A DNA stretch of 39,322 bases from Pyrinomonadaceae bacterium (GCA_049692915.1 JBAVPI010000698.1:1-39322); one strand, 5' to 3'. Numbered from the stretch's first letter, positions 10,162 through 39,207 are shown. Program-made: numbers and translations. Notes: generated by a model not told the origin, from the letters alone.

Positions 10162-10167
10162 CGAGAG

Positions 10168-10638: not shown

Positions 10639-13173
<2,535 letters not shown>

Positions 13174-15483: not shown

Positions 15484-16641
15484 ATGCTATTCAGAACACA
15501 ATCAGCCGCCGTCTACGGCATTGACGCAGACCTCGTTGACATCGAAGTTGACCTCAGCCCTGCGCGCGGCGAATCCGACTCGCCGTCGTCCGTGACCATC
15601 GTCGGCCTTCCCGACCTCGCCGTACGCGAGTCGCGCGAGCGCATCCGCGCCGCGATCAACAACAGCGCCTTCTTCTTTCCCTTTCACAAGACGACCATCA
15701 ACCTCGCGCCCGCAGACGTGCGCAAAGAGGGGGCGAGTTTTGATTTGCCGATTGCCCTCGGCATCCTCGGCGCGAACGGCGACCTCGGCGAAGGGGGCGA
15801 CTTGACGGATGTGCTCTCGGTCGGCGAACTCTCGCTCGACGGGCGCGTGCGTCCCATCCGCGGCGCTTTGCCGGTCGCCATCCGCGCGCGTGACGCGGGC
15901 ATCAAGTCGCTCCTGTTGCCGGAAGAGAACGCCAGCGAAGCGGCGGTCGTGGCGGGCGTGGACGTGTACTCCGTAGCGACATTGCGCGGCGCAGTCGAAC
16001 TCATCGCGGCCCTGCAAGTTAAAGGCGACGACCCCAGACGTCCTTCGCCAATCGCCGTTGATACTTCCGACCTCTTCTCGTCCAGAGCCGATACGGGCGT
16101 CGACTTCCGCGAAGTTTGCGGGCAACTGTCCGCCAAACGTGCGCTCGAAGTGGCAAGCGCCGGTTCACACAACATCCTTCTCATCGGCCCGCCCGGCTCC
16201 GGGAAGACGATGCTCGCCAAGCGTCTGCCGACGATTCTGCCGCCGCTCGAATTCGAGGCCGCGCTGGAGTTGACCAAAATTCATTCGGTCGCAGGATTGA
16301 CGGGACGCACCGGCCTCGTCACAGATCGTCCCTTTCGCTCACCACATCACACCATCAGCGACGCCGGACTGATCGGCGGCGGGGCCGTCCCGCGCCCCGG
16401 CGAAGTCTCGCTCGCGCATCACGGCGTCCTCTTTCTAGACGAGTTACCGGAGTTCGACCGCAGCGTCCTCGAAGTTTTGCGCCAGCCGCTCGAAGACCAA
16501 CGCGTGACGATCAGCCGCGCCGCGATGTCTCTGACGTTTCCCGCATCCTTCATGCTCGCGGCGGCGATGAACCCTTGTGGTTGTGTTGCCCTTTTGCCAC
16601 TTGGGCCGATGCGCTCGGCAAATAATCAAGCTCAATGGTGA
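15484..16641 (+). pseudogene. comM: comM/yifB (Mg-chelatase-like AAA+ competence helicase), 5' about 3/4 only, disrupted by island insertion
   Basis: Lon-like N-domain ([13 protein letters not shown]), Walker [15 protein letters not shown], Walker [12 protein letters not shown], then ...[10 protein letters not shown]. After that come 20 unrelated codons and a stop. The ORF is 385 aa, whereas family members are about 500 aa, and the C-terminal Mg_chelatase_C part is missing from the window. Confidence 0.85.
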
Positions 16642-18076
16642 TGTCCTTCGTACCGACCACGACCTTTTCAACCGTATTCTCAACGATCTGCCGCCGCTCC
16701 TCTGGCTTGAGATTTCCCCAGTTGAGATAAATGCGCTTGCCGGTCTCTACCATTCCATCGGGTGCGAACAGTGCGCGCTCGAGGTGCTCAATCTCGCCTT
16801 GCAGGATCGGCATCTGCTCCCCTATCGCCTCTGCTTGCTCCTCAAGCGGCTTGTACTGCGCGCCAAAACCTTCGCCGCTGATCTGCTCATCCAAGTACAG
16901 CCGCAGAAGCTTGTCCATGTCGCGTTTCATCTGCTTGGCTTTGGCAGTGAGCGATGACAGCAACGCCCGCTTGCCGGAAAGCGCTTCATCGGCCTTTTCC
17001 ATGTAGCGCATAATTTCCTTCGGTGACAAAAAGAAGTTTTGTAGTTCCTTGCAGTACACCTCTTCCAGGTCTATCACCGGTATCTTGTTCCGGCAGGCAA
17101 AGCAGATGTACTTGGGGCTATTGGAGGGAACATAGAGCTTTGTTCCACACTGGCAGTAGGCGAGTCCGGCAAAGAGATGCACGGGCTTTTTTGTGCTAAA
17201 GCGCGGCTGCTGTTTTTGAGCGCGCAGTATCTCGCTGCACTGCTGCCATAGCTCCTCGGAAACGATTGGCTCGACACCGATGAACACCCACTGATCCTCT
17301 GGCTTCATCACCCAGTGTTTTTTCTCACCGAGGCTCCGCGTGTAGTTGGCGCGCCGCTGCCCCTTTGCTATAGGGTCGCGCAGCAGCCGGTCAACCGTGG
17401 TATCGGAAAATCGCCCGCCGCCTCTGGTGCGGTGACCTGCTTCATTGAGGAGCCGAGCCACGGTCTTTTTGCGGCGGTGCTGTAGATAGAGTTCGTACAT
17501 GAGCCGCCTGACCGGTGCTTCGCTCTGGTCAATGATAAGCCTGCGTTCATGCCACCGGTAGCCAAACGGGGCAGCGCCGCCTAAGGGCTTACCGAGGCGT
17601 GCGCGCACGGGGACGGATGCGGCCACGCGTTCGGCGATCTCTTCGCGCTCAAACTGCGTGAGGGCGGCCTGTACGGTGAAGAACATCCGGCCAGCAGGAC
17701 TTGAAGTGTCAATCGCTTCGGCCAGCGAAATTAAATCTGCTCCGAGGTCTTTGAAGATGTCTGCCATGTCGAGCAGCTCTTTGGTGTTACGAGCGAGGCG
17801 GGCAAGCTTTGAGAATATCAGCCCGGAGATGCGTTTGTTTTGAATGTCACTAAGCATCCGCTCCGCCTCTGAGTGATGCATGACTGACTTGCCGGAGACG
17901 GCTTCCAAGTGATACACGGTCACTACCTGCCAGCCTTTGGCCTCGGCGTAGTAGCGGGCGCGCTGCTCGTGGTGCTCGGGGCTATCGCCTTCAGCCTGAT
18001 CGTGCGTTGAGACGCGCACCCAAATGCCGACGCGCTTTGCACCGTCGGTTTGCGGGTGTTGTGCAGTTAATTCCAT
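16550..18076 (-). CDS. Large serine recombinase (integrase)
   Basis: 508 aa. The resolvase catalytic domain is [15 protein letters not shown]...[19 protein letters not shown]...[40 protein letters not shown]. The recombinase domain is [14 protein letters not shown], the zinc ribbon is [24 protein letters not shown], and a coiled-coil tail follows. GGAAGGAG lies upstream of the ATG at 18076. Confidence 0.93.
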
Positions 18077-18428: not shown

Positions 18429-18458
18429 TTCACAAAGAACTATAATTCAAGGTATATT
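18429..18458 (+). promoter_or_regulatory. Sigma70-like promoter candidate for the 1065-aa gene
   Basis: TTCACA (18429-34), an 18-nt spacer, then TATATT (18453-58). A second TATAAT lies at 18441-46. This is the AT-rich divergent region between the integrase module and the large gene. Confidence 0.3.
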
Positions 18459-18528
18459 GCGCCTTCGTATAGACGTAATACAGTGCAGCCACCTGTTCTC
18501 ACCATCCAATCCGAAAGGCTGTTTATCT

Positions 18529-21500
18529 ATGTCTTGGCTAAAAAAACTCTTAAACCCAAACTATCAACAGAAATCTCAACCTGAGCCAACTGGGTCAATC
18601 AACCAAGCAGAGCCGGAAGCAAACCCTGACTATGACCTCATGGCGTCAGTACGAGAATTTGAAGAAATGGAGCGATTAAGGCAGCTTGATGATTTGCGCG
18701 CCGCCTATGGCGAAACGCTTATCATGCTTATTGATCGCCACATTCTGCAAAGAATTGATCGACAAAAAATCTTTGAGCGCCTCGCGCCACCTCCACGTAA
18801 CTTTACCGATGACGCTTCATCGCTCAATGTCATAAAAGTACTGCCGCCGCCCGAAGCTACTTTCGCTGATATGGGACGATTCTGGAATAACCTCCGCGTA
18901 TTCCGGCAACCCTTATCCTTCACCCTCATATCAAGACCGGAACGCATGTTTTTTCGTCTCACTGTCCCTCAAGGTTGCGGCGAGGCCGTAGAAGAACAAT
19001 TAGCAATTCATTTCCCCGCTGCAGTTCCGCTTGTGCCGTCTGAAGACGAACGATGGATGCCTGAGTCGCTGTACTGCGTAAATTTCGCGCCCAAATTTAG
19101 CACCCAGTTTCTCGATCATTCATTTGTCAGTCGCGACCCTTACGCGCAACTATTTTCCACGCTCGACTCCCGCGCTTTCAATGAGGCGGTGGCCGTTCAA
19201 ATTAACAGTTGCCCGCTTCCTGACGACGCACTCGACCAGCTCACGCAGGTAATGAAATGGGAAGACCCTGGGATTCCCTATGAGGTATTCGAGCCATTCG
19301 CCGACGGCATGTGGAGCAGCATTATGCAAGGGGGACTTGATGAGCACCGAAGGGGCACACGTGAATTCTATGAGGGCCTCATCAAGGGCATTGACCGCAG
19401 TCACTACGAGGTAGCAGCTCCTCTGAGACAAGCGCTCTGGCAAGAACTCGCCAGGCAGAAAAAACTGAAAGAAGAATGCGCCGAGATGATTAAGCGTATA
19501 GAGCGGAAAGAGCCGCCTTGGGTCGCTTGCGTCAATGTATACTGCGAACAGATCGAAGTGGCGCGGATGCTGCAACAGTCATTCTTACGGCAGTACGAAA
19601 CGACGGAGCAGCGCTGGGAAGAGATAACGGTAACAACGGAACATTATGACCCTTTGGATCATCCCATTTTCAATTGGTCGCTGGTATCCACAGAAGAACT
19701 TACCAGCCTCGCCCATTTCCCAGCCAGAGGTGTCACCAGTCCCCGTTTAGAAGGGGCATCAATGAAGTCGAAGTTGCCGCCGGAAAGCTTTACTACCGGT
19801 GAGGTGCAGATTGGCGTGAGCGAAGCACGCGGCCAAGTTATGCCCGTCTCCATTCCTGATAGCGTGCGTGCCCGCCACCTTTATATCGTGGGAAAGAGCG
19901 GCAGCGGCAAATCAACTCTGATAACTAATATCGCCGTGCAGGACATTGAACGCGGCGAAGGTGTCTGCGTCATTGACCCGCACGGTGATCTTGTCTCTGA
20001 CCTGCTCGACCACATCCCAGAGTATCGCATCAAAGATACGATCTACTTCAACGTCTCTGACCGCGCCCACCCTATCGGCCTCGATATGATGAGCGCCAAG
20101 AACGAAGCCGAGATAGAGATACTGACCGACGATCTGATTACTACCTTTCGCAGGCTCACCGAGACGTGGGGCGAGCGCATGGAAACGATCTTGCGCTACG
20201 CCTTCAACACGCTCCTCCGCACCCCGGGCGCGACCTTTTTAGACCTTCAAAAGCTCCTCACTAATGAGGGTTGGCGCTCAACTGTTGTACGCAAGATCAA
20301 CTTCGCCCCGCTGACCGACTTCTGGTTTAACCAGTTCGCCAACATGCCGAAGGATGCGACACAGCCGCTACTCTCGCGCATGACCAAGATTGTGCTCTCT
20401 CCGACCCTAAACGCCATCTTCGGCCAGTCACAGAACACGCTTAACTTCAATGACGTGATCCGCAATCGAAAAATACTGCTCATTAATCTCGGAGGCGATA
20501 GCCGGGACCGAAACAACGAGCAGCTTTCTGTTAGCGACGAGATGAAAAAGCTCATCGGCTCTGTCGTCGTTTCGCAGCTTCAACTTGCTGCGATGAGGCA
20601 GGCCAGCATCCCGGAAGAGAAGCGCGTGCCGTGCCGATTCTTCGTTGACGAGTTCCAGAATTTTGTCTCAGGAGCCTTCCCCAAGATTTTAAGTGAAGCG
20701 AGAAAGTACAAGTTGTCGCTGACGGTCGCCCACCAGTACATCTCGCAGCTTGATGAGGCCACGCGCAACGCCGTCTTCGGTAATGTTGGAACGATGATCG
20801 TTATGCCGCTCGGGCAGAAAGACGCGTCCTACTTAGGAGCCGAGTTAGGCGCGTACAAGCCGGAAGACGTGGCGAACCTTTCCCCAGAGCGCCACGAGGC
20901 GCTGTGCCGACCAACGACCATGGCCGCCGATACCTTTTTATTTAGGACGCTCGCCCCAGCCCCCATCACACAGAGTTTCGCCCAGGCAGTCATTGAGCAT
21001 ACAAGGGCTGAGTACAGTACGACGGACGCCGGTGAGGATGTCTTAGAGTTGCCCGCTCCTACCCTGCAGGAATCGGCAATCGCTAAACGACCGATGCGAG
21101 AGACGGAAAAGGTTTTCGCCTCGACTGTAGAGAAGATTTTGCATTTCATCTCACTCGCCGGTTACCTCACGACCGCTCAGATTATCGAGTTGTGCTATTC
21201 GCACTTGGCCGAGACTTCAAAGCGTCCGGCGGCGAGCCGCGACTTGAAGAAACTCACGGATGCGAAAAAACTAAAATCCATTAATTGGGGCGACGGCAAG
21301 GTTTTCTACGCCGGCGGCCAGTGCAATCCGACTGCACACAATGTCGCCATCCGCGATATTCTCATCAGGATTTTGCAGTCAGGATATGAGGCCGCGGAAG
21401 TCAATTTCTCGTCGAGCATCGGCGCGCTATCCCCTGATCTGCTGGTAACGTTTTTGTGTGAGGACGGATCACTCCTTCCCACCTATTGGGAATATGACAC

Positions 21501-21726
21501 CGGCACAGAAGGGATCACCGAAATAATTAAAAAAATCGCCCGCTATGTGCCCCATTCCGCCACCTCTAGGGTAAGCTTTATCTGCACGACGAAAGAGCGT
21601 GTGCAGTCGATTATGAAGGCGACGCAGGCAGACTTTATCGACTACGGCGTTTTAGTTGATTTCGCCAGCCTCAGTACACCGGCGTTTATTTCTCGCACCC
21701 GTACTAATAAATATTCATTCTTTTAA
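18529..21726 (+). CDS. Fusion protein: unknown about 470-aa N-domain + TraD/VirD4-type (FtsK/HerA superfamily) P-loop ATPase + C-terminal Replication-relaxation-family (wHTH + PD-(D/E)xK-like) domain
   Basis: Walker A HLYIVGKSGSGKSTL, then VCVIDPHGDL, Walker B RFFVDEFQNF, then ARKYKLSLTVAHQYISQLD and GNVGTMIV. The C-terminus reads ILHFISLAGYLTTAQIIELCY...SPDLLVTF...YWEYDTGTEGITEIIKKIARY. No TM helix is visible. I prefer the ATG at 18529 (MSWLKKLL, with GAAAGG upstream) over the track TTG at 18457. Confidence 0.85.
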   Translation: MSWLKKLLNPNYQQKSQPEPTGSINQAEPEANPDYDLMASVREFEEMERLRQLDDLRAAYGETLIMLIDRHILQRIDRQKIFERLAPPPRNFTDDASSLNVIKVLPPPEATFADMGRFWNNLRVFRQPLSFTLISRPERMFFRLTVPQGCGEAVEEQLAIHFPAAVPLVPSEDERWMPESLYCVNFAPKFSTQFLDHSFVSRDPYAQLFSTLDSRAFNEAVAVQINSCPLPDDALDQLTQVMKWEDPGIPYEVFEPFADGMWSSIMQGGLDEHRRGTREFYEGLIKGIDRSHYEVAAPLRQALWQELARQKKLKEECAEMIKRIERKEPPWVACVNVYCEQIEVARMLQQSFLRQYETTEQRWEEITVTTEHYDPLDHPIFNWSLVSTEELTSLAHFPARGVTSPRLEGASMKSKLPPESFTTGEVQIGVSEARGQVMPVSIPDSVRARHLYIVGKSGSGKSTLITNIAVQDIERGEGVCVIDPHGDLVSDLLDHIPEYRIKDTIYFNVSDRAHPIGLDMMSAKNEAEIEILTDDLITTFRRLTETWGERMETILRYAFNTLLRTPGATFLDLQKLLTNEGWRSTVVRKINFAPLTDFWFNQFANMPKDATQPLLSRMTKIVLSPTLNAIFGQSQNTLNFNDVIRNRKILLINLGGDSRDRNNEQLSVSDEMKKLIGSVVVSQLQLAAMRQASIPEEKRVPCRFFVDEFQNFVSGAFPKILSEARKYKLSLTVAHQYISQLDEATRNAVFGNVGTMIVMPLGQKDASYLGAELGAYKPEDVANLSPERHEALCRPTTMAADTFLFRTLAPAPITQSFAQAVIEHTRAEYSTTDAGEDVLELPAPTLQESAIAKRPMRETEKVFASTVEKILHFISLAGYLTTAQIIELCYSHLAETSKRPAASRDLKKLTDAKKLKSINWGDGKVFYAGGQCNPTAHNVAIRDILIRILQSGYEAAEVNFSSSIGALSPDLLVTFLCEDGSLLPTYWEYDTGTEGITEIIKKIARYVPHSATSRVSFICTTKERVQSIMKATQADFIDYGVLVDFASLSTPAFISRTRTNKYSFF

Positions 21727-21985: not shown

Positions 21986-22975
21986 ATGCAGCTGCGCCTC
22001 CACAAATATAAACGTGATTCGAAAGGGTTGCGCCCGTACACACATGTCAGCCGCATCACCGACCGCGCCCTTGAGATCATTCGGCTCATCGAGCGTTACC
22101 GGTTCTTACCAGCGTCACTGATTGTCAAGTTAGCCGACGGCAATCCGCGTACACACAGCGTCATTTACAAGCGCTCTATCATAAAGAATTGATTAACCGC
22201 TTCGCCTTCCCCCGCGTCGGCAATCCCGGCGAGTTCAATTACTACCTCGACCGCACCCAAGCCCTTGAATTACTCGTCGAGGCCGGATGCGACCGAGACG
22301 CGCTCGATTAGGATTTAGTCAAACGGAACTTTGCTAAGGACTACAGCGCTATCAATCTGAGAACGAACACTGACGATCTATAAGGACGGCTCATGCACCT
22401 TTAGCACGAGCTAATGATTAGCCGCTTTCACGCGATGCTAGAACTCGCCTGCCGCGTCTCTAGAAGCCGCGTCGAGCTGCAAGAATTCAAGCAAGGCCCG
22501 TAGCTATGGAATAGGGTTGAAGTTCCGGTTGTGCGTTTCAGAAATGAAAGGTGGGTTGAGTCTGATGATACTGAGACGCTTCTCCACAGGCCGGATGCAT
22601 TCTTTACGCTGCGCTTTCCGTCAGGAGCAGGGCGAACGGGAGTTGGTACACTTTTTCTACGAGGCCGACCGTAAGCATACCTCAACTCCTAAGCATAACC
22701 GAAAACTCCGGGCCCACTTTGACTACATTGTGAAGCAGCAACTACGTGAGGCTGTGTATGGAGTGAAATATCCACGCCATGCTCATTGCGATGACTGATC
22801 GGTACCGGCAGACAAGCTGCGAGGTGCGGCCAAGGACGTTGCCGTTTCAGGCGGCAAACCCTCTTCCTATTTTGATTCACTATCAAGCAGCTATTCTGCT
22901 AGGCGCAAGTAGTATGAGAGGAAGGACGAATGCGGAACGAATCTCTCTACTTAACAAAGCCCGACATAATTAGGT
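21986..22975 (+). pseudogene. Decayed stand-alone Replication-relaxation-family gene (several frameshifts and in-frame stops)
   Basis: Family-like segments are scattered over three frames. They include RITDRALEIIRLIERYRFLPASLIVKL, then RHLQALYHKELINRFAFPRVGNPGEFNYYLD in another frame, HL*HELMISRFHAMLEL, and RPDAFFTLRF.../ELVHFFYEADRKHTSTPKHNRKLRAHFDY. Reading through requires passing TAG, TAA and TGA stops. Confidence 0.7.
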
Positions 22976-25109: not shown

Positions 25110-25658
25110 CCCGTCGCCGAGAATGTGTTAGCGCGTCTGTTCCGCGCCACGCGCCTGGATGAGGTCTGGACTACGGACATCACCTACCTCTGGACTTCGG
25201 AAGGATGGTTCTACTTGGTCATCTTTCTTGATTTGTACGCGCGGTTCGTCGTCGGGTGGGCGGTCTCGGAGAGTCTTGAGGTCGGATTCGTCGAGCGGGC
25301 GTTTCTCCAAGGGCAACGACGGCGCGCAGGGGGCGTCTCGCCGCTCATCCATAGTGATCGCGGTTGCCAGTACGTCAGCACAGCCTTCAGAGAAAAGCGC
25401 GTGGCGTGGGGCTGCGCGCAGAGTATGAGCTGCCAGGGCAACTGTTGGGACAATGCGGTGACGGAAAGCTTCTTTGGCATCTTGAAGAGCGAGATGATTC
25501 ATCACGAACACTTTGCGACCAGACAGGAAGCGACGGACAAACTGTTCGATGGCATTGATGTCTTTTACAACCGGATGAGGATTCATTAGGCCACAGAATA
25601 CTTCGCACCGGAGGAGTATGAAGCGCGCTATCAAGCGCACTTGAAACAAGTAGCGTGA
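25110..25658 (+). pseudogene. IS3-family transposase (OrfB, DDE/rve core) C-terminal fragment with a premature stop
   Basis: VWTTDITYLWTSEGWFYLVIFLDLYARFVVGWAV...LIHSDRGCQYVS...GNCWDNAVTESFFGILKSE...FYNRMRIH*ATEYFAPEEYE. The D, D, E residues are present, OrfA and the N-terminal part are missing, and there is an internal TAG at 25587-89. The left boundary is approximate. Confidence 0.8.
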
Positions 25659-25741: not shown

Positions 25742-27253
25742 TTATTCGTAAAGGCGTTCTGCTTCTTTCCCAGCCACTAAGGTTGGATACACTCGTTGCT
25801 GACGATTGTGATAGTTATTCCAGAACGTCGTTGTGAGTAGTTCATCGTTTGTCTGAAGTCGCACCACCGAATCAGTGAGCTTTTCATGCAACTTAAGAAA
25901 GCCCCGACGAGTCTCATGATGTCGAACTTCGTACTCCATCTCATTTGTGAAGATGCGCCGTACTAGTTCGGTTACCTCTTCGATGTTGTCGCTGACGATT
26001 GCTCCCACAGCCACTCCTGAGCGGAAGTCGATTAGACGCGAAAGAGGATGCACATTTCTGTAGAAGCTTGTTTTTACCCCTTTGTCACAATAGAAGATTA
26101 CGGGCTTTCCGAGACTAAGGGCCATAGCTGCCTCGGCGTCTTTGCCATAGCTTTCTTTTTCACCCTCGGTGTAAATTAGTACCTTCGCACATTTCACCAT
26201 TAAGCATTCAATTAGACCCTTGTCCTCGTGGCCTTTTGCCGCACTCATAGTAGGATCGAAGTAGCGCAGATGGAAATCTTTGAGGCGAGGGTCTCCAAAA
26301 ATCTTTTCGCACGCCTCTGCCATATCTCTGAAGTTCTGCCGCTTTCGCATACTGGTCGCAACATACACATCGAGATCGTTCACCATTGAAAGATAGAGCG
26401 CGGTGTTCTTAGTTGCCTTGGACCTAGCCGCTTGAAACCTATTGAATTGCTCATCAAATCGTCGATTCAGTTCCTTCTCGTCAGACAACGTTGTGTCCAA
26501 TACGTCCTCATACGAGAGGAGTAATTGCTCCCGGTTGTTATCCTTAGCAACCCCTTCAAGAAGCTGACGAAATGTTATTGAGGCACCGTGATGCTTCTTC
26601 AGGCCATCGAGCAGGAGATTGCGCGCTTCTTCGCTATCCGCTGGAATCTCGCCAAACGTCTTGCACGCCATTTCGGAGATCAGATAACGATTATCTTTTG
26701 CAATTTCCTCAAGGGGAAGAGCAGGCCCTCGTTGCGAAATCGCTGATGTATCAAAACGCTTTTGCTTGTAGAATGCCGTCAACTCTTCGATAGTTTTTGA
26801 TCGGAGAGCCCGGAACGCTGCCGCCACGTTTCCGAAGTATAAAAGCCCATCTACATACAAGCGATAAAGACCCCAGCGGAGATGATCATGTGATTGCACG
26901 CTTTGATGGCTACCGCGGGTCATCGATTCGACGTAGTAAGGTAAGCGAGCTACATTATAGGTGTGCTCGGGCTGCTCGAGCCAGTAGTACTTAAAAAAAC
27001 CATCAGACATACTCCCCGCATTTGAAAGGACTAACAACTGATTTAGCTGTACCTTTGAAAGCGGCACTTGGTCGAGACGCCTCAGTTGATTAAAGACCTC
27101 ATCCTCCATTTGCTCGTGCACAAAATGGCCAAGTCCCTCGGTGCCAAACCGAAAGCATTCATACTTACCAGCTAAGTCCTTTTTGGATAATTGTTGCATG
27201 TCCACTCTTTGAGCAAGCCTCATTCGGAACCGTTGTTGAGCACCCAAGTTCAA
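25742..27253 (-). CDS. Hypothetical 503-aa protein; unknown N-terminal half, C-terminal half resembling a nucleoside 2-deoxyribosyltransferase-type Rossmann domain
   Basis: The C-terminal half reads DLDVYVATSMRKRQNF...KGLIECLMVKCAKVLIYTEGEKESYGKDAEAAMALSLGKPVIFYC. This fits the layout of that fold: an early beta-strand, an acidic residue after the strand-4 region, then GKPV. The start is uncertain: TTG at 27253, or ATG at 27223 or 27199. A TATAAT lies just upstream on the minus strand. Confidence 0.75.
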   Translation of the reverse strand: MNLGAQQRFRMRLAQRVDMQQLSKKDLAGKYECFRFGTEGLGHFVHEQMEDEVFNQLRRLDQVPLSKVQLNQLLVLSNAGSMSDGFFKYYWLEQPEHTYNVARLPYYVESMTRGSHQSVQSHDHLRWGLYRLYVDGLLYFGNVAAAFRALRSKTIEELTAFYKQKRFDTSAISQRGPALPLEEIAKDNRYLISEMACKTFGEIPADSEEARNLLLDGLKKHHGASITFRQLLEGVAKDNNREQLLLSYEDVLDTTLSDEKELNRRFDEQFNRFQAARSKATKNTALYLSMVNDLDVYVATSMRKRQNFRDMAEACEKIFGDPRLKDFHLRYFDPTMSAAKGHEDKGLIECLMVKCAKVLIYTEGEKESYGKDAEAAMALSLGKPVIFYCDKGVKTSFYRNVHPLSRLIDFRSGVAVGAIVSDNIEEVTELVRRIFTNEMEYEVRHHETRRGFLKLHEKLTDSVVRLQTNDELLTTTFWNNYHNRQQRVYPTLVAGKEAERLYE

Positions 27254-27691: not shown

Positions 27692-27729
27692 AGGAAAAAG
27701 CGCAGCCATCTAAATAAATGGTTGCGCTT
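27692..27729 (-). terminator. Rho-independent terminator of the MTase...DUF932 operon
   Basis: The minus strand reads AAGCGCAACCAT / loop / ATGGCTGCGCTT followed by TTTTTCC (one mismatch in the stem). It begins 18 nt after the DUF932 stop. Confidence 0.55.
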
Positions 27730-27746: not shown

Positions 27747-28778
27747 CTAGCCAGCCACGGCGTAGGGCTGAAGATACTTGCCGAGTCGCGCAGTCAGTTC
27801 ATACTGGCGTACCGGGACAAGCTGCTTGAAGGTTGTCGTAAACGCATTGGACAGCGACCAGATAGTTCGCCTCTTGAACTCCTCATGCTGCGGCTCAAAG
27901 TATCCCGTGTGTACCAGCTTCATCAGGTTCCTTGGAAACTTCTGTTCCAGAAACGCTTTGTAGATGATGAGGCGGGCTTGGTCATCTGAGAGGTCGCGTT
28001 CCTGCATAAACTGGATGCTTGCTTTCAGCGGCTCAAAGTTTCGCTGAATCCGGTCTACACCGATGGAGAGCGAATCCACCAGATCGAAGTGCTTGGAATG
28101 CTTGGCGAGCAGCGGCTTGAAGTCGCCAGAGAGTGCCATATTGTCGCAGACAAACACGCGGTAGCCTGCCACCATCCCGAGCCGCATTGACCGGTCATTG
28201 GCATTTCTGAGGCCAATAGCGAACCGAACGCCGAAACAATCAGCGTTTAATTCAAGGAGCGCAAAGAGCCGCATTCCGTCGGGCGAGACGGCATAGTCAT
28301 CGCGCACAATCGAGATATGGCGGAAGGCTAGTGCTTCTTCAAGCTGATCAATGAGACGGGCGTGTGGGATCGGCTGGAAGGTAGCTGTCGCCTCCGCCAC
28401 GGGCAGATTTGCCAGCTCGGGCCTTGTGATTTTGCTTGCGCCAGCATGTACCATCAGGCGGGCATCGGGAAGTGATGATGCAGCCTCCGGTTCGGCGGCA
28501 GTCTGATCTATGCATGCCGGCAGATCATCGTCACGCTCGGTGTGAATTGCTTCTTCCAACTGACTATCAAGGTCATCTTCCATTGGAGAGGGAAGCAAAT
28601 CATTAGCAGAGTCGCTCGCCCCTTCGATCTGCGATACCTGATCTAATAGCTGCTCTGGCGGCACGGGAGGCATCTCTTCCTGTGCCTCATTCGGCGGTGG
28701 TACGATAGTAAGCTTTCGTGGCTTACTGCGAGATGTCGTGGATTGTTTCGGTGCTATCTGTTTCAGTTTCCGGCTCAT
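27747..28778 (-). CDS. DUF932-family protein (typical of conjugative/mobilisable elements and phages)
   Basis: FAIGLRNANDRSMRLGMVAGYRVFVCDNMALSGDF matches the NSxDGS...G..R.VC.N core of DUF932. The N-terminal 110 aa are acidic and disordered. The ATG at 28778 has AGGAGGA upstream (the track ORF extends to 28814). Confidence 0.85.
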   Translation of the reverse strand: MSRKLKQIAPKQSTTSRSKPRKLTIVPPPNEAQEEMPPVPPEQLLDQVSQIEGASDSANDLLPSPMEDDLDSQLEEAIHTERDDDLPACIDQTAAEPEAASSLPDARLMVHAGASKITRPELANLPVAEATATFQPIPHARLIDQLEEALAFRHISIVRDDYAVSPDGMRLFALLELNADCFGVRFAIGLRNANDRSMRLGMVAGYRVFVCDNMALSGDFKPLLAKHSKHFDLVDSLSIGVDRIQRNFEPLKASIQFMQERDLSDDQARLIIYKAFLEQKFPRNLMKLVHTGYFEPQHEEFKRRTIWSLSNAFTTTFKQLVPVRQYELTARLGKYLQPYAVAG

Positions 28779-28950
28779 CGGTTTCCTCCTCTGTAAGTTC
28801 TGAAAGCATTTCATCGAGGCACTGCTCGTGAAAGGCTTTTCGTCGTTCGAGTCTGCTGTGAAGCGGCTTCCCGCACCACTTGCACTCTTTGTGGTTAGTG
28901 CTCATCAATGCGCGCTTGACTATCAGCCACCGCGCCCAGCGGGGAGTCAT
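28723..28950 (-). CDS. 75-aa zinc-knuckle protein with acidic tail (hypothetical)
   Basis: AAGGAGG lies 7 nt upstream of the ATG at 28950. MTPRWARWLIVKRALMSTNHKECKWCGKPLHSRLERRKAFHEQCLDEML + EEETDEPETETDSTE. It overlaps the 3' end of the upstream gene by 56 nt. Confidence 0.5.
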   Translation of the reverse strand: MTPRWARWLIVKRALMSTNHKECKWCGKPLHSRLERRKAFHEQCLDEMLSELTEEETDEPETETDSTETIHDISQ

Positions 28951-29212
28951 GACGTTCCCTCCTTTGCGGCATCTCTTTCCGCTCGCGCGTGATTGCATCA
29001 AAGCACGGATCGCAGTACCCGCTTTGCGGGTTACTACAGCAGGCGTGGCAGAGCATGCGGGCGCAGGCATCGCAGCAAATCCAATTACGCGGCGAAGTCT
29101 CTTTTATGACGACCACACCCACGCCGTAGAATTCACTTTCAAAGACGCCTAAGTGTCCGTGCAGCGGCCTCCCGCAGGCCTCGCAGGTGCCTTCGCTTTC
29201 TTTCTCACACAT
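28895..29212 (-). CDS. 105-aa Cys-rich protein with four CxxC pairs (hypothetical double zinc ribbon)
   Basis: GGAGGA lies 7 nt upstream of the ATG at 29212. CEAC...CDAC...CHAC...CDPC are spread over 70 residues. Confidence 0.6.
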   Translation of the reverse strand: MCEKESEGTCEACGRPLHGHLGVFESEFYGVGVVVIKETSPRNWICCDACARMLCHACCSNPQSGYCDPCFDAITRERKEMPQRRERHDSPLGAVADSQARIDEH

Positions 29213-29359
29213 TTCATGTTCCTCCGTTTTGAGTTTGAGTCTCTGGAACCTTTATCCGAACTCTTCGGGTAAAGGCCGCAGAGCATCAACGGGCAGGGAT
29301 GGGTTTGCTGCGGGACGCGGCAGGATGAAACGCCTTTAGATAATTTGTGAGGCGTGTTG

Positions 29360-30604
29360 TTAGAAAGGGGCATCAGGCGGAAGGGTGCGTGCGCTGAAGG
29401 GTCGAGAGACTGCGCCGTCAATCATGAGTTTGACGTAGATGTGATGGCTCGGCAGATTGACGAGATCAGTTGCCCGAAAGTCCGGGAAGAATTCCCCTTC
29501 CAGTAGTTCAGCATCAGTCAGCCCGACCCGAAACGCGATGATCGTGCCGACGTTGCCAAGAACAGCGTCCCGTACCTGTTCGTCGATCTGCGACAGGTAC
29601 TGGTGGGCGATGATCAAGTTGAGACGGTACTTCCGCAGTTCCGAAAGCATCCCGGCCAGACTCAGCGTGGTAAAGGTGTGGAACTCATCGAGGTACAGAT
29701 AGAAGTCGCGGCGCATCTCTTCGGGAGTATCTGCCCGCCGAAGCGCAGCCAGTCCCATGCTTGAAACGAGGAGCGAACCGAGAAGCTGCGTGGTGTCCTC
29801 GCCAAGCTTTCCCTTTGCGAGATTAACGAGCAACAGCTTTCCCTCATCCATGATCCCGCGCAGGTTGAATGAACTCTTTGGCCGGGTCAGGATGCGGCGA
29901 AGCACCGGGTCTGCAAGGAAGGCTCCGACTTTGTTTTGTACCGGAGCAATCACCTCGGAGCGAAAGCGCGGCGTGTACGCTTCATACTCGGTTGTCCAGA
30001 ACCTACGGACTTGGTCGTTCCGGCAACTGGCAAGGGCGGCTTTGCGATATGCGGCGTCATCAAACAGGCGTAGCACATCGGCAAGCGTAGCCTCCGGCTG
30101 ATCAAGCAGGAGCAGTAAGGCGTTCCGTAGGATGTACTCCAGCCGCGGCCCCCACGAATCGCTCCATAGCTTGCGGAAAACACCGACGAGACCTGATGCA
30201 GCGAGAGCGCGCTTTGACTGCGGCACGTCTGAGAGAGGGTTAAAGCCCATGGACTGGGTGCGGTCGGTGGGATCAAAGTAGATCACATCTGCCTGCCGCG
30301 CCATGGGCACCGAGAGCGCAACGCGCTCCACAAGATCGCCGTGCGGATCAAGCAGGGCTGCTCCCCGACCCGATGCAATGTCTTGCCGGATGAGCCGCTC
30401 AAGCAGCGTGGACTTGCCGGTGCCGGTCTTGCCGATCAGATAGAGGTGCGACCTGCGGTCGGCGTGCTTGATGCCAAAGGGAGTCAGGTGATTGCGAAAC
30501 GTAGCTTCGGCGAAAAAGGAAATAGGCTGCGGAGATTTGTCTTGCTGCGGTGGCATGGTGAGTTGGTGCTTAGCGAATATCTTTGATGGTAGCAGGCACG
30601 GCAC
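29360..30604 (-). CDS. Stand-alone TraD/VirD4-type P-loop ATPase, paralogue of the central domain of the 1065-aa protein
   Basis: Walker A HLYLIGKTGTGKSTL, LLDPHGDL, Walker B FYLYLDEFHTF, LRKYRLNLIIAHQYLSQID, GNVGTIIAF. It is colinear with residues about 470-850 of the fusion protein and has no TM helix. The start is GTG at 30604 or ATG at 30556. Confidence 0.88.
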   Translation of the reverse strand: MPCLLPSKIFAKHQLTMPPQQDKSPQPISFFAEATFRNHLTPFGIKHADRRSHLYLIGKTGTGKSTLLERLIRQDIASGRGAALLDPHGDLVERVALSVPMARQADVIYFDPTDRTQSMGFNPLSDVPQSKRALAASGLVGVFRKLWSDSWGPRLEYILRNALLLLLDQPEATLADVLRLFDDAAYRKAALASCRNDQVRRFWTTEYEAYTPRFRSEVIAPVQNKVGAFLADPVLRRILTRPKSSFNLRGIMDEGKLLLVNLAKGKLGEDTTQLLGSLLVSSMGLAALRRADTPEEMRRDFYLYLDEFHTFTTLSLAGMLSELRKYRLNLIIAHQYLSQIDEQVRDAVLGNVGTIIAFRVGLTDAELLEGEFFPDFRATDLVNLPSHHIYVKLMIDGAVSRPFSARTLPPDAPF

Positions 30605-30736
30605 AAGAGAACAGAAGGGTAAATTCGCCGCGCGTCATCTCTTCGGCGAAGTATCTGTAAGCAGGAATACAGGCCCGAACGTGAGAAGAAGCGGCAGTCA
30701 ATGAGGCATAAGCTGCTACATACTCTGTTGATTGCA

Positions 30737-31684
30737 TTATGCCGCTTGAGCCAGCCGCATTTCTGCGAGGCGGACATAGCGCGGATTCAGCTCGATGCCG
30801 ATGTAGTGTCGCTTGAGCCTACGCGCTGCAAGTGCGGTCGTGCCTGACCCCATAAACGGATCAAGCACCACGCCGCCTTCCGGGCAGCCCGCTTCGATGG
30901 GAGTCTCTATGAGCGTCTGGGGGAAGACGGCGTAGTGCTTGCCCGGATAGGGCTTGGTTGGGATGCGCCACACGCACCGCTTATTTCTGCCGCGGGAAAG
31001 TATTCGCTGCCTGCTTGCTTCCGCACTCTGTGGGTTGATGGCAGAGATGTAAGGGTCGCCGTAGATTCGTTTCCGCTTGCTCTGAGGGTTGATAAGAGGC
31101 CGGAGCAGACGCGGTTTGTCGACAAGCAGCTCAAATTGCTGCTTGAAGTAGTAACGACGCTCCTTGACGAAGAACAGCACCTTCTCAAAGTCAACGGTGA
31201 ATCGGTCATGTGCGCTCGACGGCATACAGTTGGGCTTGTACCAGATGATTTCATTGCGGAGCATCCATCCCCTCTGGCACATCTCGATTGAAAAGCGCGC
31301 AGGAATGAGAGCCAGCGACTTTTTCTTAAGGCCAATGCCCGAAGCCATCTGCCGAAACGGTGATCGGGATGCGTCCGTAAACTGCTCAGATGAACGGCTC
31401 CGCACCGGCGAGTCGCCGGCATACGTGTCTCCAAGGTTCACCCAGCAGGTGCCCGAAGGTTTCAGCACCCGCCCTACCTCATCGAACACCGCGCACAGTT
31501 TTTCAAGGTACAAATCAAGCGACGGTTCAAGTCCGATCTGGCCGCGCACCCGGTAATCGCGAAGACGCCAGTACGGAGGGCTCGTAATCACGCAGTCAAT
31601 GCTGTCTGGCGGAAAGTGCCGGAGGGTAGCGCGTGCGTCGCCGCACAGTATGCGGTCAAGATAGGGCTTAAGGGATGAGGCCAT
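30737..31684 (-). CDS. Beta-class DNA methyltransferase, SPPY motif IV (N4-cytosine or N6-adenine)
   Basis: IDCVITSPPYWRLRDY (motif IV) precedes VLDPFMGSGTTALAARRLKRHYIGIELNPRY (motif I). This is the beta-class order. Confidence 0.9.
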   Translation of the reverse strand: MASSLKPYLDRILCGDARATLRHFPPDSIDCVITSPPYWRLRDYRVRGQIGLEPSLDLYLEKLCAVFDEVGRVLKPSGTCWVNLGDTYAGDSPVRSRSSEQFTDASRSPFRQMASGIGLKKKSLALIPARFSIEMCQRGWMLRNEIIWYKPNCMPSSAHDRFTVDFEKVLFFVKERRYYFKQQFELLVDKPRLLRPLINPQSKRKRIYGDPYISAINPQSAEASRQRILSRGRNKRCVWRIPTKPYPGKHYAVFPQTLIETPIEAGCPEGGVVLDPFMGSGTTALAARRLKRHYIGIELNPRYVRLAEMRLAQAA

Positions 31685-31721
31685 GTAAGGGTAATGGATA
31701 CAAAGTGAAGGCTGTAGATCG

Positions 31722-32396
31722 TTAGGCGATTTGGCGCAGTGTCACGGTCTGAGCGTTGAGCCGCGCTTCTGCAATCTTGCAGTAGGTGGGGTCGAGTTCA
31801 ATGCCGATATATCCCCTACCCAATTCCCGTGCTGCGACGGCAGATGAGCCTGAGCCGAGGAATGGATCAAGGACAATATCGCCTACCTCGCTGCTGTGTT
31901 CGATCAATGGCTTAAGAAGTTCAACAGGCTTTTCGTGCGGATGCTGCACGTACCGCGTCCGCACACAGCGGATGAGATTGGGAAACCCAGGTCTGCGGTA
32001 GATAGGACGGCCTTTCTCAAGGACTACGATGCACTCGTAGCGTCTGCGGAAACCATGTCCCCTCCCCTGCAGCACCTTATCCCAGATAATGATGTCCCTG
32101 AGCTTGTATTTCGTATAGGTTTGGAAAAAGGTGCTGACAAAACCGAGATGCCGCGTGCCGCAGAACACATACGCCGCGCTATTGGCTTTCAGCACGCGGT
32201 ATGCTTCCGATAGTGCAGAGAGACCGACGAGCGGATGTTCATTGCCGAGGATGGTGCGGTTATGTACCCCGTAGCCGATGTTATCCCCATACGGCGGGTC
32301 AGTGACGATCAGGTCAACGCTTTTATCCGGCAGGCTTTTGAGGACAATGAGGGCGTCGCCGCAGATGAGGCGGCCTGAGAAGGGAAGGGATATCAT
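31722..32396 (-). CDS. Beta-class DNA methyltransferase, DPPY motif IV (probably N6-adenine)
   Basis: VDLIVTDPPYGDNIGYG (motif IV) precedes VLDPFLGSGSSAVAARELGRGYIGIELDPTY (motif I). Compact at 224 aa. Confidence 0.9.
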   Translation of the reverse strand: MISLPFSGRLICGDALIVLKSLPDKSVDLIVTDPPYGDNIGYGVHNRTILGNEHPLVGLSALSEAYRVLKANSAAYVFCGTRHLGFVSTFFQTYTKYKLRDIIIWDKVLQGRGHGFRRRYECIVVLEKGRPIYRRPGFPNLIRCVRTRYVQHPHEKPVELLKPLIEHSSEVGDIVLDPFLGSGSSAVAARELGRGYIGIELDPTYCKIAEARLNAQTVTLRQIA

Positions 32397-34977: not shown

Positions 34978-36555
34978 CTAGGCCGTTGCCAGTGCCGCCA
35001 TGAGTTCATCTGCAAGCTTGCCAGACATCTGAGGGTTGATCTTTGGATCGCCCCACGGCTCTGTTTTCAGCGCCTTGTACCGCTTCTGCTCGGTGACGGA
35101 TACCCTGATGGAAGTCGTATTTGGGCCGTCTTTAATGAGCGCGATTTGTATTCGAGTTCCTGTTTGACGGTATCCTCCGGTAATGGTCATGCCGGTGAGA
35201 ATTTGACCCGTTTCCTTACTGGCGCTTTCAATCATCAGTCCCCGTCGTTTGAGAAAGGTAAGCACCCGCTCATACATTTGGTCTGGGGGCTGATTGATCT
35301 TGATAATGACGCTGCCTGATGAGTCTTGCACTTTTGATTGCTCTACTTCACGCTCCTGCCGGTCACGAGCAGTCGCTGCTGCCGGTGCGTGTTCAGAGGC
35401 GGACGCTGGTGCTTTAGATACTTCTGGCACAGGCGTCTGCGATTCTGTATGTGCCGGTGCGGTGATAGAGAAGTCCCACACGGGACTAAGCAGCACGCCT
35501 TCCCCCTGCCGGGAGGTCATATCCTTTAGTGATACTTTTTGTATTTTTGAGGTGGGACGAAGCACCAGCCCATACTCTCCAAGGGGCAGCGGCTGCTGCG
35601 GTTCAACTTCGATCCGCCCTCGGCCTAGTTTGTTTGTGCGAATAGGAACTATCTCTTCGATAAAGTTGAGTTCCGTCCGCGCATCGGACTGGAAATTCTT
35701 GAGCTTGGTTTTTTGCGCGCTCACGAGCCGCCAGTTGTTTTTAGTGGGATTGACTTTGACAAGCACTGGATCAAACTCATCAGGGTTAGCGCCGGTAACG
35801 TCTCCGAAGGCAACCTCAAATTTGGGCGTAGTGGTCGAGATAATATTCGGTGACCTGTTTCCATCAAGGGCATAGATAAATGTGTACGAAGGGTCTCTGC
35901 CAAACACTTTTGGCAGACTCATGATTGCCATTCCCGCCATGCCGACAATGGGAATTGCCGCCATTCCAGCAGATGAAAGGATTGCTCCTGACGCAGCTTT
36001 AATAATCACGTCGCTCGCAACGTTTTGAACGGTGGCATCAGCGAGAATAGTAGGTATATTGTCACCCTTGGCTTTGGTTTGAATGACCGTTGGAAACGCT
36101 GCTGCTACAGCGGTCTTAGATTTATCAATGAAGAGGACATACGGCTGAGTCGTCTGCTCTGTGCCACTGGTGGTAGAAAGCAGCGATGATTCACTGGTAG
36201 GTGGGCGCTGTGTAGTAGCAGCCGGAGTGGTTTGGTGCCGCGCTGATGCTGTCTGCATTGCCTCAATAATCTTTTGGCTGAGTCCAGCCTCTTTCAGCTT
36301 AAAGAGCGCATCTAGCGACACGTCGAATTGGGTTTCATTGCTCTGAATCGCATTTATAATTACGCTCTCGGCGAAGCCGCTTTTGACCATGCGGGTAATG
36401 TCAGCATTGGTTAGAGGTTTCTTGTCTTGCGCAGCATATCCATTCAAAGCCGCCTTTGCTTGTTGACACAGTGGTGTTAAGGCAGGGGTAAACATACAGA
36501 CAGCAGAGAGGAGTGACACAGTTAGGAAGCGAGTGACTGGGCTACTGATACTCAT
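34978..36555 (-). CDS. Secreted/periplasmic hypothetical protein (525 aa)
   Basis: Signal peptide MSISSPVTRFLTVSLLSAVCMFTPALTPLCQQAKA. AAGGAG lies 6 nt upstream of the ATG. It is followed after 64 nt by the YARHG gene on the same strand. I see no catalytic motif. Confidence 0.75.
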   Translation of the reverse strand: MSISSPVTRFLTVSLLSAVCMFTPALTPLCQQAKAALNGYAAQDKKPLTNADITRMVKSGFAESVIINAIQSNETQFDVSLDALFKLKEAGLSQKIIEAMQTASARHQTTPAATTQRPPTSESSLLSTTSGTEQTTQPYVLFIDKSKTAVAAAFPTVIQTKAKGDNIPTILADATVQNVASDVIIKAASGAILSSAGMAAIPIVGMAGMAIMSLPKVFGRDPSYTFIYALDGNRSPNIISTTTPKFEVAFGDVTGANPDEFDPVLVKVNPTKNNWRLVSAQKTKLKNFQSDARTELNFIEEIVPIRTNKLGRGRIEVEPQQPLPLGEYGLVLRPTSKIQKVSLKDMTSRQGEGVLLSPVWDFSITAPAHTESQTPVPEVSKAPASASEHAPAAATARDRQEREVEQSKVQDSSGSVIIKINQPPDQMYERVLTFLKRRGLMIESASKETGQILTGMTITGGYRQTGTRIQIALIKDGPNTTSIRVSVTEQKRYKALKTEPWGDPKINPQMSGKLADELMAALATA

Positions 36556-36698: not shown

Positions 36699-37004
36699 AT
36701 GGGACGCTTACCTCGTCAAAAACCGACGCACCTCGGCACAAAGCTTCTGACAATCCGTCAAAAACTTGGCTTCAGCCAGACGCAGATGTGCAAGGCTTTG
36801 GAGCTTGGAATTAACTACTCGGCTATTTCCAACTATGAGTTGGGAACGAGAGAACCTTCAATGCCAATGCTGCTACGGTATGCGCGGCTGGCAAGAATCC
36901 CACTGGAAATCTTGATTGATGATGAGATGAATCTCCCAGAGGAATTGCCTCTGGGCGGCGAGTATGAATGGGTGCTGCATCGGAAGCGAACGAAAAAATC
37001 TTAG
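36699..37004 (+). CDS. XRE-family helix-turn-helix transcriptional regulator
   Basis: LGTKLLTIRQKLGFSQTQMCKALELGINYSAISNYELGTREPSMPMLLRYARL. AGGAGG lies 9 nt upstream of the ATG. Confidence 0.85.
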   Translation: MGRLPRQKPTHLGTKLLTIRQKLGFSQTQMCKALELGINYSAISNYELGTREPSMPMLLRYARLARIPLEILIDDEMNLPEELPLGGEYEWVLHRKRTKKS

Positions 37005-38595: not shown

Positions 38596-39207
38596 TCAGG
38601 TAAACAAGGAAAGGTTATGAGGTTTAGGCGGATAGAATAAACCTATGATAATCCAATTTTTGGGGTGGCGGTGAACTGTACCAACATAGAAGTGCGTGTC
38701 GTTCCGCTCAATCATTTCCTTCTCGAACCTCTGGCGAAACTTAGCCTCCCATTCATCGCCATAATCTCTTGACCATCTTCGCCATGCTTGCGCCATCTCC
38801 CAGTCCGTACAATGAAGCGCGTGGCCTCTACATGCGTCGTCGTCACAGCTAAAGAGGTAATGAAAATCGTAAGGAATTTTCTCTAGTTCTTCTTGCGGTT
38901 GTCGATCGAATAGTTTGCCGTGGCGGAGCATGTCAAGTTGCCCCTGTGTCCATGTAGGGCTTGCAGCAGTAATGCGTAATCGTTTTATTACATTTGGGCG
39001 AAAGAATCCTAATGTCGGCTGATTGTGCGCGTCTCGCTCTCTTTGTAACTGGCATAGAGAGCGAGCGCGTAGCGGTTCAACAATATCTTTTCTGGCTTGC
39101 CATTCGTTATCAGTAGGTAGTGTTTCTGAGATGATTTTAATTGACTGAATACTTGGGGTGTAGCTTTCTGGTCGGGCGTCTGCCGCTGTTTTAGTGCGCG
39201 GATTCAT
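38596..39207 (-). CDS. Hypothetical 203-aa protein (Cys/His cluster CDDDACRGHALHC)
   Basis: A clean ORF convergent with the KAS III gene. The C-terminus THFYVGTVHRHPKNWIIIGLFYPPK looks like a conserved family, but I cannot name it. Confidence 0.65.
   Translation of the reverse strand: MNPRTKTAADARPESYTPSIQSIKIISETLPTDNEWQARKDIVEPLRARSLCQLQRERDAHNQPTLGFFRPNVIKRLRITAASPTWTQGQLDMLRHGKLFDRQPQEELEKIPYDFHYLFSCDDDACRGHALHCTDWEMAQAWRRWSRDYGDEWEAKFRQRFEKEMIERNDTHFYVGTVHRHPKNWIIIGLFYPPKPHNLSLFT

Follow-up and report, generated by a model that had tools for sequence, protein, structure and literature searches.

Gene content of the array

The stretch of DNA analysed here, hereafter called the window, comprises 39,322 nucleotides (nt) from a Pyrinomonadaceae bacterium (GCA_049692915.1, JBAVPI010000698.1:1-39322). 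Between positions 27,747 and 32,396 it carries an array of six minus-strand genes encoding, in the direction of transcription, two beta-class DNA methylases (MT1 and MT2), a soluble P-loop ATPase of the TraD/TrwB/HerA type, a cysteine-rich zinc protein (the Cys protein below), a protein of 75 amino acids (aa) with an acidic tail and a member of the DUF932 family (Table 1). The gene content, the insertion of the surrounding island in comM, the orphan status of the methylases and their facultative occurrence in related elements favour, with reasonable confidence, an interpretation of the array as a composite within an integrated and probably mobilizable element, in which orphan methylases stand before a DNA-handling core.

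Table 1. Features of the array and of the surrounding island, in window coordinates.
Feature	Position	Strand	Length	Remarks
MT1, beta-class DNA methylase with DPPY motif	31722..32396	-	224 aa	PF01555, E=1e-35
MT2, beta-class DNA methylase with SPPY motif	30737..31684	-	315 aa	PF01555, E=4e-48
Soluble TraD/TrwB/HerA-like P-loop ATPase	29360..30556	-	398 aa	TrwB_AAD_bind, T4SS-DNA_transf, TraG-D_C
Cys-rich zinc protein	28895..29212	-	105 aa	Strong Shine-Dalgarno site
CxxC...HxxC protein with acidic tail	28723..28950	-	75 aa	AAGGAGG site; orthologue in L086/L087
DUF932-family protein	27747..28778	-	343 aa	PF06067 above cut-off
Intrinsic terminator, hairpin and U-run, end of array	27693..27729	-		Folding energy, z score
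Large serine recombinase, left end of island	16550..18076	-		Resolvase and Recombinase Pfam matches; 3' end overlaps truncated comM
comM (Mg-chelatase-like), truncated, integration target	15484..16641	+	385 aa	Mg_chelatase profile positions 1-163 of 207; no C-terminal domain
Paralogous TraD-like ATPase	18457..21726	+	1089 aa	TrwB_AAD_bind (8e-12), TraG-D_C

All six open reading frames (ORFs) proposed in a preliminary description of the window were recovered where it had placed them, with the start of the 75-aa gene corrected from 28947 to 28950. The public gene call of the ATPase begins at an ATG (30556, giving 398 aa), and an alternative GTG start lies at 30604 (ORF 29360-30604). The DUF932 ORF spans 27747-28814; its likely start is M13 at 28778, behind a GAGGAGGA site, in agreement with the called length of 343 aa. 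Shine-Dalgarno sites were also recognised before the Cys gene, where the site is strong, and before the 75-aa gene (AAGGAGG). The array had been described as tight, which holds for the 37-nt gap between the methylase genes and for the 56-nt overlaps of the 75-aa gene with both the Cys gene and the DUF932 gene, but not for the ATPase gene, which is flanked by gaps of 132-180 nt and 147 nt. These two gaps of about 150 nt could house internal promoters, so that the array is tight only in part.

The terminator that had been placed at about 27.70-27.73 kb is supported by a hairpin at approximately 27698-27729, followed by a U-run, with a folding energy of -16.2 kcal/mol and a z score of -3.78 (0 of 200 shuffled sequences folded as well). 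A scan with consensus promoter and terminator patterns returned no more sites than in shuffled sequence and missed this hairpin, and Rfam and tRNA scans of the window gave no matches. The guanine plus cytosine (GC) content of the array is 0.55-0.59, compared with 0.45-0.48 in its immediate flanks, a contrast that is expected of a mosaic element.

Orphan methylases

Both methylases match PF01555 far above the cut-off of 26.7 bits (124.1 bits for MT1 and 164.7 bits for MT2), and in their translations motif IV, (D/S)PPY, lies N-terminal to the S-adenosylmethionine motif I, FxGxG, which is the circular permutation of the beta class (TDPPYG ... DPFLGSGSS in MT1, TSPPYW ... DPFMGSGTT in MT2). Classification with hidden Markov models (HMMs) and motif order agree with the tandem DPPY and SPPY pair initially described.

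MT1, an accessory orphan, is probably an N6-adenine methylase. Its best NCBIfam match is the plasmid-type model PRK13699 (1.4e-36), with a score below the cut-off of that model (126 vs 244 bits), and in tblastn searches at least 5000 plasmids, including 3841 typed as conjugative, carried methylases about 40% identical to it. In one example, from Burkholderia, the homologue adjoins an antirestriction gene, a large ParB-family gene and traD. Orphan methylases have been described as a prominent function of plasmid leading regions (PMC11541004).

MT2 matches the PADLOC type II methylase model (1.3e-90), and its nearest solved structures are those of TTHA0409-like proteins (a Thermus methylase), N4-cytosine methylases and M.PvuII. 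These relationships agree with the SPPY motif, and MT2, which is orphan and facultative, is probably an N4-cytosine methylase. At about 12 loci MT2 is conserved at 50-64% identity and the ATPase of the same loci at 59-80%; because the two have diverged to a similar degree, MT2 is an old, repeatedly lost companion of the element and not a recent acquisition.

In agreement with the preliminary description, no endonuclease was recognised in the array or its immediate neighbours with the Pfam, NCBIfam, PHROGs or PADLOC profiles, and the cognate endonuclease gene that adjoins the methylase in type II restriction-modification (R-M) systems was not found there. Also, no nuclease remnant was detected in any of 17 methylase-positive loci. 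A 279-aa gene between MT2 and the ATPase gene in locus L001 (related loci are denoted by L numbers) was considered as a nuclease candidate and rejected, as it looks like an ImmA-type protease accompanied by an XRE repressor (weak M48 match).

The soluble ATPase and its small companions

The small ATPase matches TrwB_AAD_bind with 46.7 bits (E=3e-12, cut-off 20.5) over profile positions 10-309 of 387, and the TrwB structure 1e9r at E=7e-8. Its highest Kyte-Doolittle hydropathy over 19 residues is 1.23 and no segment reaches 1.6, indicating that it has no membrane anchor, as first proposed for this P-loop translocase. A soluble coupling-type ATPase has been reported in pIP501, whose TraJ is anchored through the separate protein TraI (PMC13037476). 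Against the NCBIfam TraD models the window ATPase scores 20-37 bits, with cut-offs of 366-648.

Relatives of this ATPase number at least 8000, with 55-82% identity across phyla, and it was found in all 82 loci compared. The 80 species-level loci (ATPase identity 55-68%) represent at least eight phyla, among them Acidobacteriota, Nitrospirota, NC10, Verrucomicrobiota, Planctomycetota, Omnitrophota and Binatia. Genes recurring around the ATPase encode serine recombinases, RadC, ParB-like, PDDEXK_1/Cas4-like, SWIM and helix-turn-helix (HTH) proteins. RadC, large ParB-like, Cas4-like and SWIM genes are typical of mobile-element establishment and DNA processing. The family also lands on plasmids of Alphaproteobacteria: in Sulfitobacter mediterraneus plasmid NZ_CP081110.1 (L089, 6125-10179), a 45% identical ATPase, interrupted by transposases, has a serine recombinase and a DUF3768 gene as its neighbours.

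The four CxxC pairs earlier noted in the Cys protein were seen at C10/13, C47/50, C55/58 and C67/70. The protein has a conserved core of about 72 aa, and ten cysteines are invariant in an alignment of 13 homologues. Members of the family were seen in 17 loci and in each case follow the ATPase directly, whether a methylase is present or not. The AlphaFold2 model (pLDDT 73) has a beta-hairpin, zinc-ribbon-like shape, and a fold search of the PDB with it gave no significant match, the hits being zinc-ribbon fragments (serine integrase, MqsA; E >= 0.39). Assignment as a PHD-like C4HC3 finger was dropped, H56 not being invariant.

For the 75-aa protein, previously described as a zinc protein with an acidic tail, the CxxC...HxxC pattern, the ribosome-binding site and a 74-aa orthologue in L086/L087, which is 75% identical and likewise overlaps both of its neighbours, argue for a real gene. 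No other relative was found among 1.84 billion representative proteins, nor any tblastn match in 85 loci, and these comparisons indicate that the gene is real but lineage-specific. In seven related elements, the position between the Cys and DUF932 genes is occupied by a small protein (about 87 aa) that shows an HNH-like 'HHIIP...KHRAWH' motif and has no Pfam match (L001, 11659-11883; L023, 11355-11609; five other loci), a place taken in the window by the unrelated 75-aa protein.

Membership of the last gene product in DUF932, as originally assigned, is borne out by a PF06067 score of 26.2 bits against a cut-off of 23, over profile positions 8-216 of 227. The conserved domain corresponds to the last 235 aa or so, preceded by an acidic and variable N-terminal extension; its 2654 relatives are mostly of 241-263 aa. 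When the PDB was searched with the AlphaFold2 model (pLDDT 80), no fold matched at E<=1e-3, and the top entries, UFC1 and polycystin (TM < 0.3), are meaningless. A literature search on the function of DUF932, PF06067 or YfjQ returned nothing useful, and to our knowledge the family has no known function. It is widespread in plasmids, phages and islands. A relative that shares the long N-terminal extension (58% identity over 96%) was found at 10001-10984 of a phage-like contig (L088, Logan SRR22405860), which also encodes VgrG3-like, CHAP, glycosyl hydrolase and integrase proteins; there, it adjoins a small HNH gene, an N6_N4 methylase and a PDDEXK_11 protein.

Distribution of the array genes in related elements

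In order to follow the co-occurrence of the six genes, 80 loci from different species were fetched, every ORF up to 7 kb away from the ATPase gene was clustered, and the resulting families were searched again with HMMs; neighbour counts refer to the 54 loci in which the ATPase is flanked on each side by 4 kb or more. DUF932 was found in 30 of these, a SWIM zinc-finger protein in 24, the PDDEXK_1/Cas4-like nuclease in 21, a beta-class methylase in 15, the Cys protein in 14 and two methylases in 4. The pair of methylases, MT1 with MT2, is confined to the window, L001, L023 and L037. Two architectures predominate. The window type reads (recombinase) HTH - [MT] - ATPase - Cys - [small protein / ParB-like] - DUF932; the other reads Cas4-like < SWIM < > ATPase - membrane protein - large ATPase. 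As neighbours of the ATPase in loci L006-L085, DUF932 alone occurs 21 times, SWIM alone 18 times, both 6 times and neither 6 times. This pattern suggests that DUF932 and SWIM, the latter usually with the Cas4-like PDDEXK_1 protein, are two interchangeable partner modules.

Methylases are an optional part of these elements. When the ATPases are placed on a neighbour-joining tree, elements with and without a methylase are intermingled. A gene of the family HTH133 abuts the ATPase gene in the methylase-negative loci L079, L071, L053, L026 and L075, and it is exactly this HTH133/ATPase junction that a methylase fills in L050, L041 and L059. In window-type elements, the MT2 family always lies directly upstream of the ATPase. 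Methylases are present in L023 and L037 and absent from L016 and L032, and a promoter-like motif (TTGGC-N17-TATAGT) was found upstream of the ATPase both in L037, which is methylase-positive, and in L016, which is methylase-negative.

A Fisher screen of 17 methylase-positive against 65 methylase-negative loci identified, as families tracking the methylases, the methylases themselves, antisense shadow ORFs, DUF932 (15/17 vs 19/65 loci) and a small XRE regulator; apart from methylase and DUF932, no family of at least 150 aa was enriched in the methylase-positive loci. Conversely, no beta-class methylase was detectable in 17 of the 30 loci bearing DUF932. The six genes had been proposed as a single operon whose co-conservation would be informative. 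ATPase, Cys protein and DUF932 do recur together, and the comparison indicates that they form a genuine recurrent module; the proposal of one six-gene unit does not hold, since the array is a composite of a facultative methylase cassette (15/54 loci), a conserved backbone and the 75-aa gene private to its lineage.

The same distribution bears on whether the methylases act as epigenetic regulators of excision, replication or expression, or represent the remnant of an R-M system that has lost its nuclease. Such a role would be in keeping with the conservation of MT2 over deep divergence, with its location just upstream of the backbone promoter region and with the association of an XRE-type HTH family with methylase-positive elements (6 loci vs 1). 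Yet close relatives do without methylases, which are hence not essential for the cycle of the element, no trace of a lost nuclease was detected in the 17 methylase-positive loci, and the extra genes beside MT2 in L001 look like an ImmA-like/XRE pair and not a nuclease. We consider both variants quite improbable.

Likewise, the distribution speaks to a methylation-linked defence system, raised in the preliminary description, in which the methylases would mark self and the ATPase, zinc proteins and DUF932 would attack or exclude unmarked DNA. Close methylase-less relatives keep ATPase, Cys protein and DUF932 in identical order, and the persistence of the proposed effectors in the absence of a methylase means that they cannot depend on methylation for sparing self DNA. 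This outweighs, in our view, the co-directional arrangement with the methylases first and the enrichment of DUF932 with methylases. The ATPase also matches the HerA-like Mad8 model of the defence system MADS (2e-17), a match at the level of the HerA/FtsK/TraD superfamily, with the 1089-aa paralogue scoring alike. The authors' detection model makes Mad6, Mad7 and Mad8 all mandatory; Mad6 (kinase) and Mad7 (DptG-like) were absent from the 18 flanking proteins scanned, and membership in MADS was rejected, the only matches being the mad8-like ones of both ATPase paralogues. PADLOC gave generic methylase and mad8/HerA-level matches for the array and none for the Cys, 75-aa, DUF932, 503-aa and 188-aa proteins. 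A candidate defence gene of family PDC-M19B does lie at the end of the window, but the steady companions of the ATPase are recombinases and mobile-element genes. A defence function of this kind is accordingly very improbable indeed.

The island and its integration in comM

The GC content of the window falls from about 0.62 to about 0.50 at approximately 17 kb and stays low to the end of the window, delimiting an island of at least 22.7 kb in whose middle the array sits. At its left end, the island begins with the serine recombinase overlapping the truncated comM, followed by the 1089-aa ATPase, small ORFs, an IS3 fragment, a 503-aa gene and the array. The same comM/recombinase junction occurs in L001, L015 and L052 (comM 55-84% and recombinase 58-64% identical, the recombinases of L015 and L052 at 58%). 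L001 is the closest relative, with an ATPase 80-82% identical and the order MT-MT-(regulator pair)-ATPase-Cys-(small protein)-DUF932. The window element thus carries its own integrase and is inserted site-specifically in a conserved target, as integrative mobilizable elements (IMEs) are.

The 1089-aa ATPase has an N-terminal region without known domain and a C-terminus with a marginal match to Replic_Relax (E=3e-5, 24.6 bits, cut-off 25.3), the domain of MOBC relaxases found in IMEs (PMC5357655). Paralogues of about 1050 aa were found in 12 loci, where they lie 1-9 kb (mostly 2-3 kb) downstream of the small ATPase and are often preceded by a membrane protein of 229 aa. These paralogues (L001, 15015-18200) share a conserved C-terminal domain, 'GRGGxQHKYLQ...GSVDVALEK...IACEISVT', which by eye looks like a PD-(D/E)XK nuclease, and the large TraD-like ATPase might unite a nickase and a coupling ATPase in one protein. 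A frameshifted Replic_Relax gene had been suspected at 21986-22800 and was dismissed, the joined fragments having no Pfam match.

Instead of transfer, the ATPase, zinc protein and DUF932 could serve to replicate, partition or maintain the element after its excision or, in the recipient, function in anti-defence or establishment, with DUF932, RadC, ParB-like and Cas4-like proteins as interchangeable establishment genes. The nearly exclusive occurrence of DUF932 and SWIM plus PDDEXK_1 beside the ATPase would suit such a role, as would the interspersed genes for RadC and large ParB-like proteins, which plasmid establishment regions typically contain, the DUF932 relative in a phage-like contig and the lack of type IV secretion system (T4SS) genes nearby. 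Set against these are the best family matches of the ATPase, which are coupling-protein domains including the TraM-recognition region TraG-D_C, its pairing with another coupling-type ATPase that bears a fused nuclease/relaxase-like domain, and the absence of a replication initiator linked to the ATPase in window-type loci. This explanation appears unlikely to us.

Several other genes of the island were recorded. Just downstream of the terminator, the 503-aa gene (25742-27253, minus strand), with a promoter-like site of its own (27494-27466), was matched by nothing in Pfam, NCBIfam, PHROGs, PADLOC or PDB sequences, and none of the 85 related loci contained a relative; it appears to be cargo specific to the lineage. 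Upstream of the array, a 525-aa protein without clear domain (34978-36555, minus strand) is 49% identical to the product of a gene of L037 (2536-4050), and both genes lie a few kb upstream of an MT-MT-ATPase module; the island probably reaches at least this far. An XRE-type HTH gene (36699-37004, plus strand) is divergent from the minus-strand run of 11 genes extending from 36555 to 25742 and is possibly the repressor of the element; its family, found in 6 methylase-positive loci and 1 methylase-negative locus, is paired in L001 with the 279-aa ImmA-like protein beside MT2. Finally, a 203-aa protein (38596-39207, minus strand) matches the PADLOC candidate defence family PDC-M19B (1.5e-37); as it lies at the window end, a partner gene may be cut off.

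A proposed role for the element

On the interpretation favoured here, the large serine recombinase has inserted the element into comM, and the core of the array, formed by a soluble, hexameric-type, DNA-dependent ATPase like TraD and TrwB followed by the zinc-ribbon protein and DUF932, would constitute a DNA-processing module for movement or establishment of the element. The zinc protein and DUF932 may act as DNA or substrate adaptors, presumably by contacting the ATPase, and the second TraD-like ATPase, with its fused nuclease- or relaxase-like domain, would provide nicking. One or two orphan methylases placed upstream of this core, in the same direction of transcription, would modify the DNA of the element and also of the host at two motifs, such that the element would be already protected against the restriction systems of new hosts, or quickly protected from them. 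Protection of this kind has been attributed to orphan methylases in phages and in the leading regions of plasmids. The conservative suggestion of the preliminary description, a module of a transferable element with self-protecting orphan methylases, therefore stands in substance, supported by the island in comM, the lack of a cognate nuclease and the kinship of MT1 with methylases of conjugative plasmids.

A number of observations weigh against this interpretation. Neither methylase gene nor the ATPase gene is preceded by an obvious Shine-Dalgarno site, and the array, in mid-island, is not demonstrably in a leading position. The divergence of MT2, similar to that of the ATPase, makes it a long-standing companion of the lineage and not casual cargo. 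The roles assigned to DUF932 and to the Cys protein are guesses, since no structure related to either one has been solved. The large ATPase of the window is inverted with respect to that of L001 and only 34% identical to it, and an IS3-family transposase fragment with the integrase core only is present at 25125-25589 (plus strand), both suggesting decay or rearrangement. Neither T4SS genes nor a clear relaxase were found among the scanned window proteins (Replic_Relax falls 0.7 bits under its cut-off), with no search for oriT made. Also, the right end of the island and the 3' part of comM were not found in the window, where no plus-strand ORF past 32.4 kb matches comM.

More speculatively, the loci could represent an undescribed and widespread family of serine-recombinase elements, built on an anchor-less TraD-like ATPase with interchangeable modules (zinc ribbon plus DUF932, or SWIM plus Cas4-like protein) and a second, nuclease-fused ATPase, that moves or establishes its DNA by neither classical T4SS conjugation nor phage packaging. 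This broader proposal is tentative and, on balance, doubtful; if true, it would provide a first function for DUF932, for whose role these elements offer a concrete setting. The near-invariant soluble TraD-like ATPase in poorly studied soil and groundwater phyla, accompanied by recombinases and by DUF932 or the SWIM/Cas4-like pair, points to a common, uncharacterised route of DNA movement or establishment in these bacteria. At the same time, a defence candidate suggested by gene order alone resolves into accessory self-protection methylases on a mobile-element backbone; this disposes of a false lead and gives an example of a useful check, namely whether the proposed effectors occur without the methylase in close relatives.

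Comparison with known systems

Orphan methylases on an integrative element are a recognised kind of arrangement, and the question shifts from them to the backbone, that is, to the roles of the soluble TraD-like ATPase and DUF932 and to how the element moves. MT1 resembles the orphan methylases of plasmid leading regions and phages (PRK13699 type, about 220 aa) in size, in beta-class architecture and in having no partner nuclease; like them, it resides on a mobile element, near ParB-like, RadC and antirestriction genes in its relatives. Unlike them, it forms a tandem DPPY and SPPY pair on a chromosomal integrative element and scores under the NCBIfam cut-off, the likeness being one of sequence and gene company.

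With MADS (mad1-8), the array shares a methylase and a HerA-like ATPase. In contrast to MADS, it has no Mad6 kinase, Mad7, specificity subunit, Mad3 or Mad4, its methylases are beta-class and type II-like, not type I-like, and its ATPase occurs mostly without a methylase.

The small ATPase has in common with the type IV coupling proteins (VirD4/TraD/TrwB) the P-loop nucleotide-binding and all-alpha domains, the TraG-D_C region and the FtsK/HerA superfamily, and the anchor-less TraJ of pIP501 is a precedent for a soluble ATPase with a separate membrane partner. It differs from coupling proteins in lacking a transmembrane anchor, in scoring far under all TraD/VirD4 equivalog cut-offs and in occurring as two paralogues per element; neither a T4SS (VirB4) nor a clear relaxase encoded alongside was found among the scanned window proteins. 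In place of relaxosome partners, it is accompanied by a zinc-ribbon protein and DUF932, or by SWIM and a Cas4-like nuclease.

The element as a whole comes close to the serine-recombinase IMEs (PMC5357655, PMC5704250). It departs from those described in its hosts, which are Acidobacteriota and other soil and groundwater phyla, in the marginal assignment of its relaxase and in a mobility that is predicted from gene content. What it shares with them is a large serine recombinase, a specific target gene, small size, the absence of mating-pore genes, a coupling-type ATPase of its own and, as a marginal match, a putative domain of the MOBC/Replic_Relax type.

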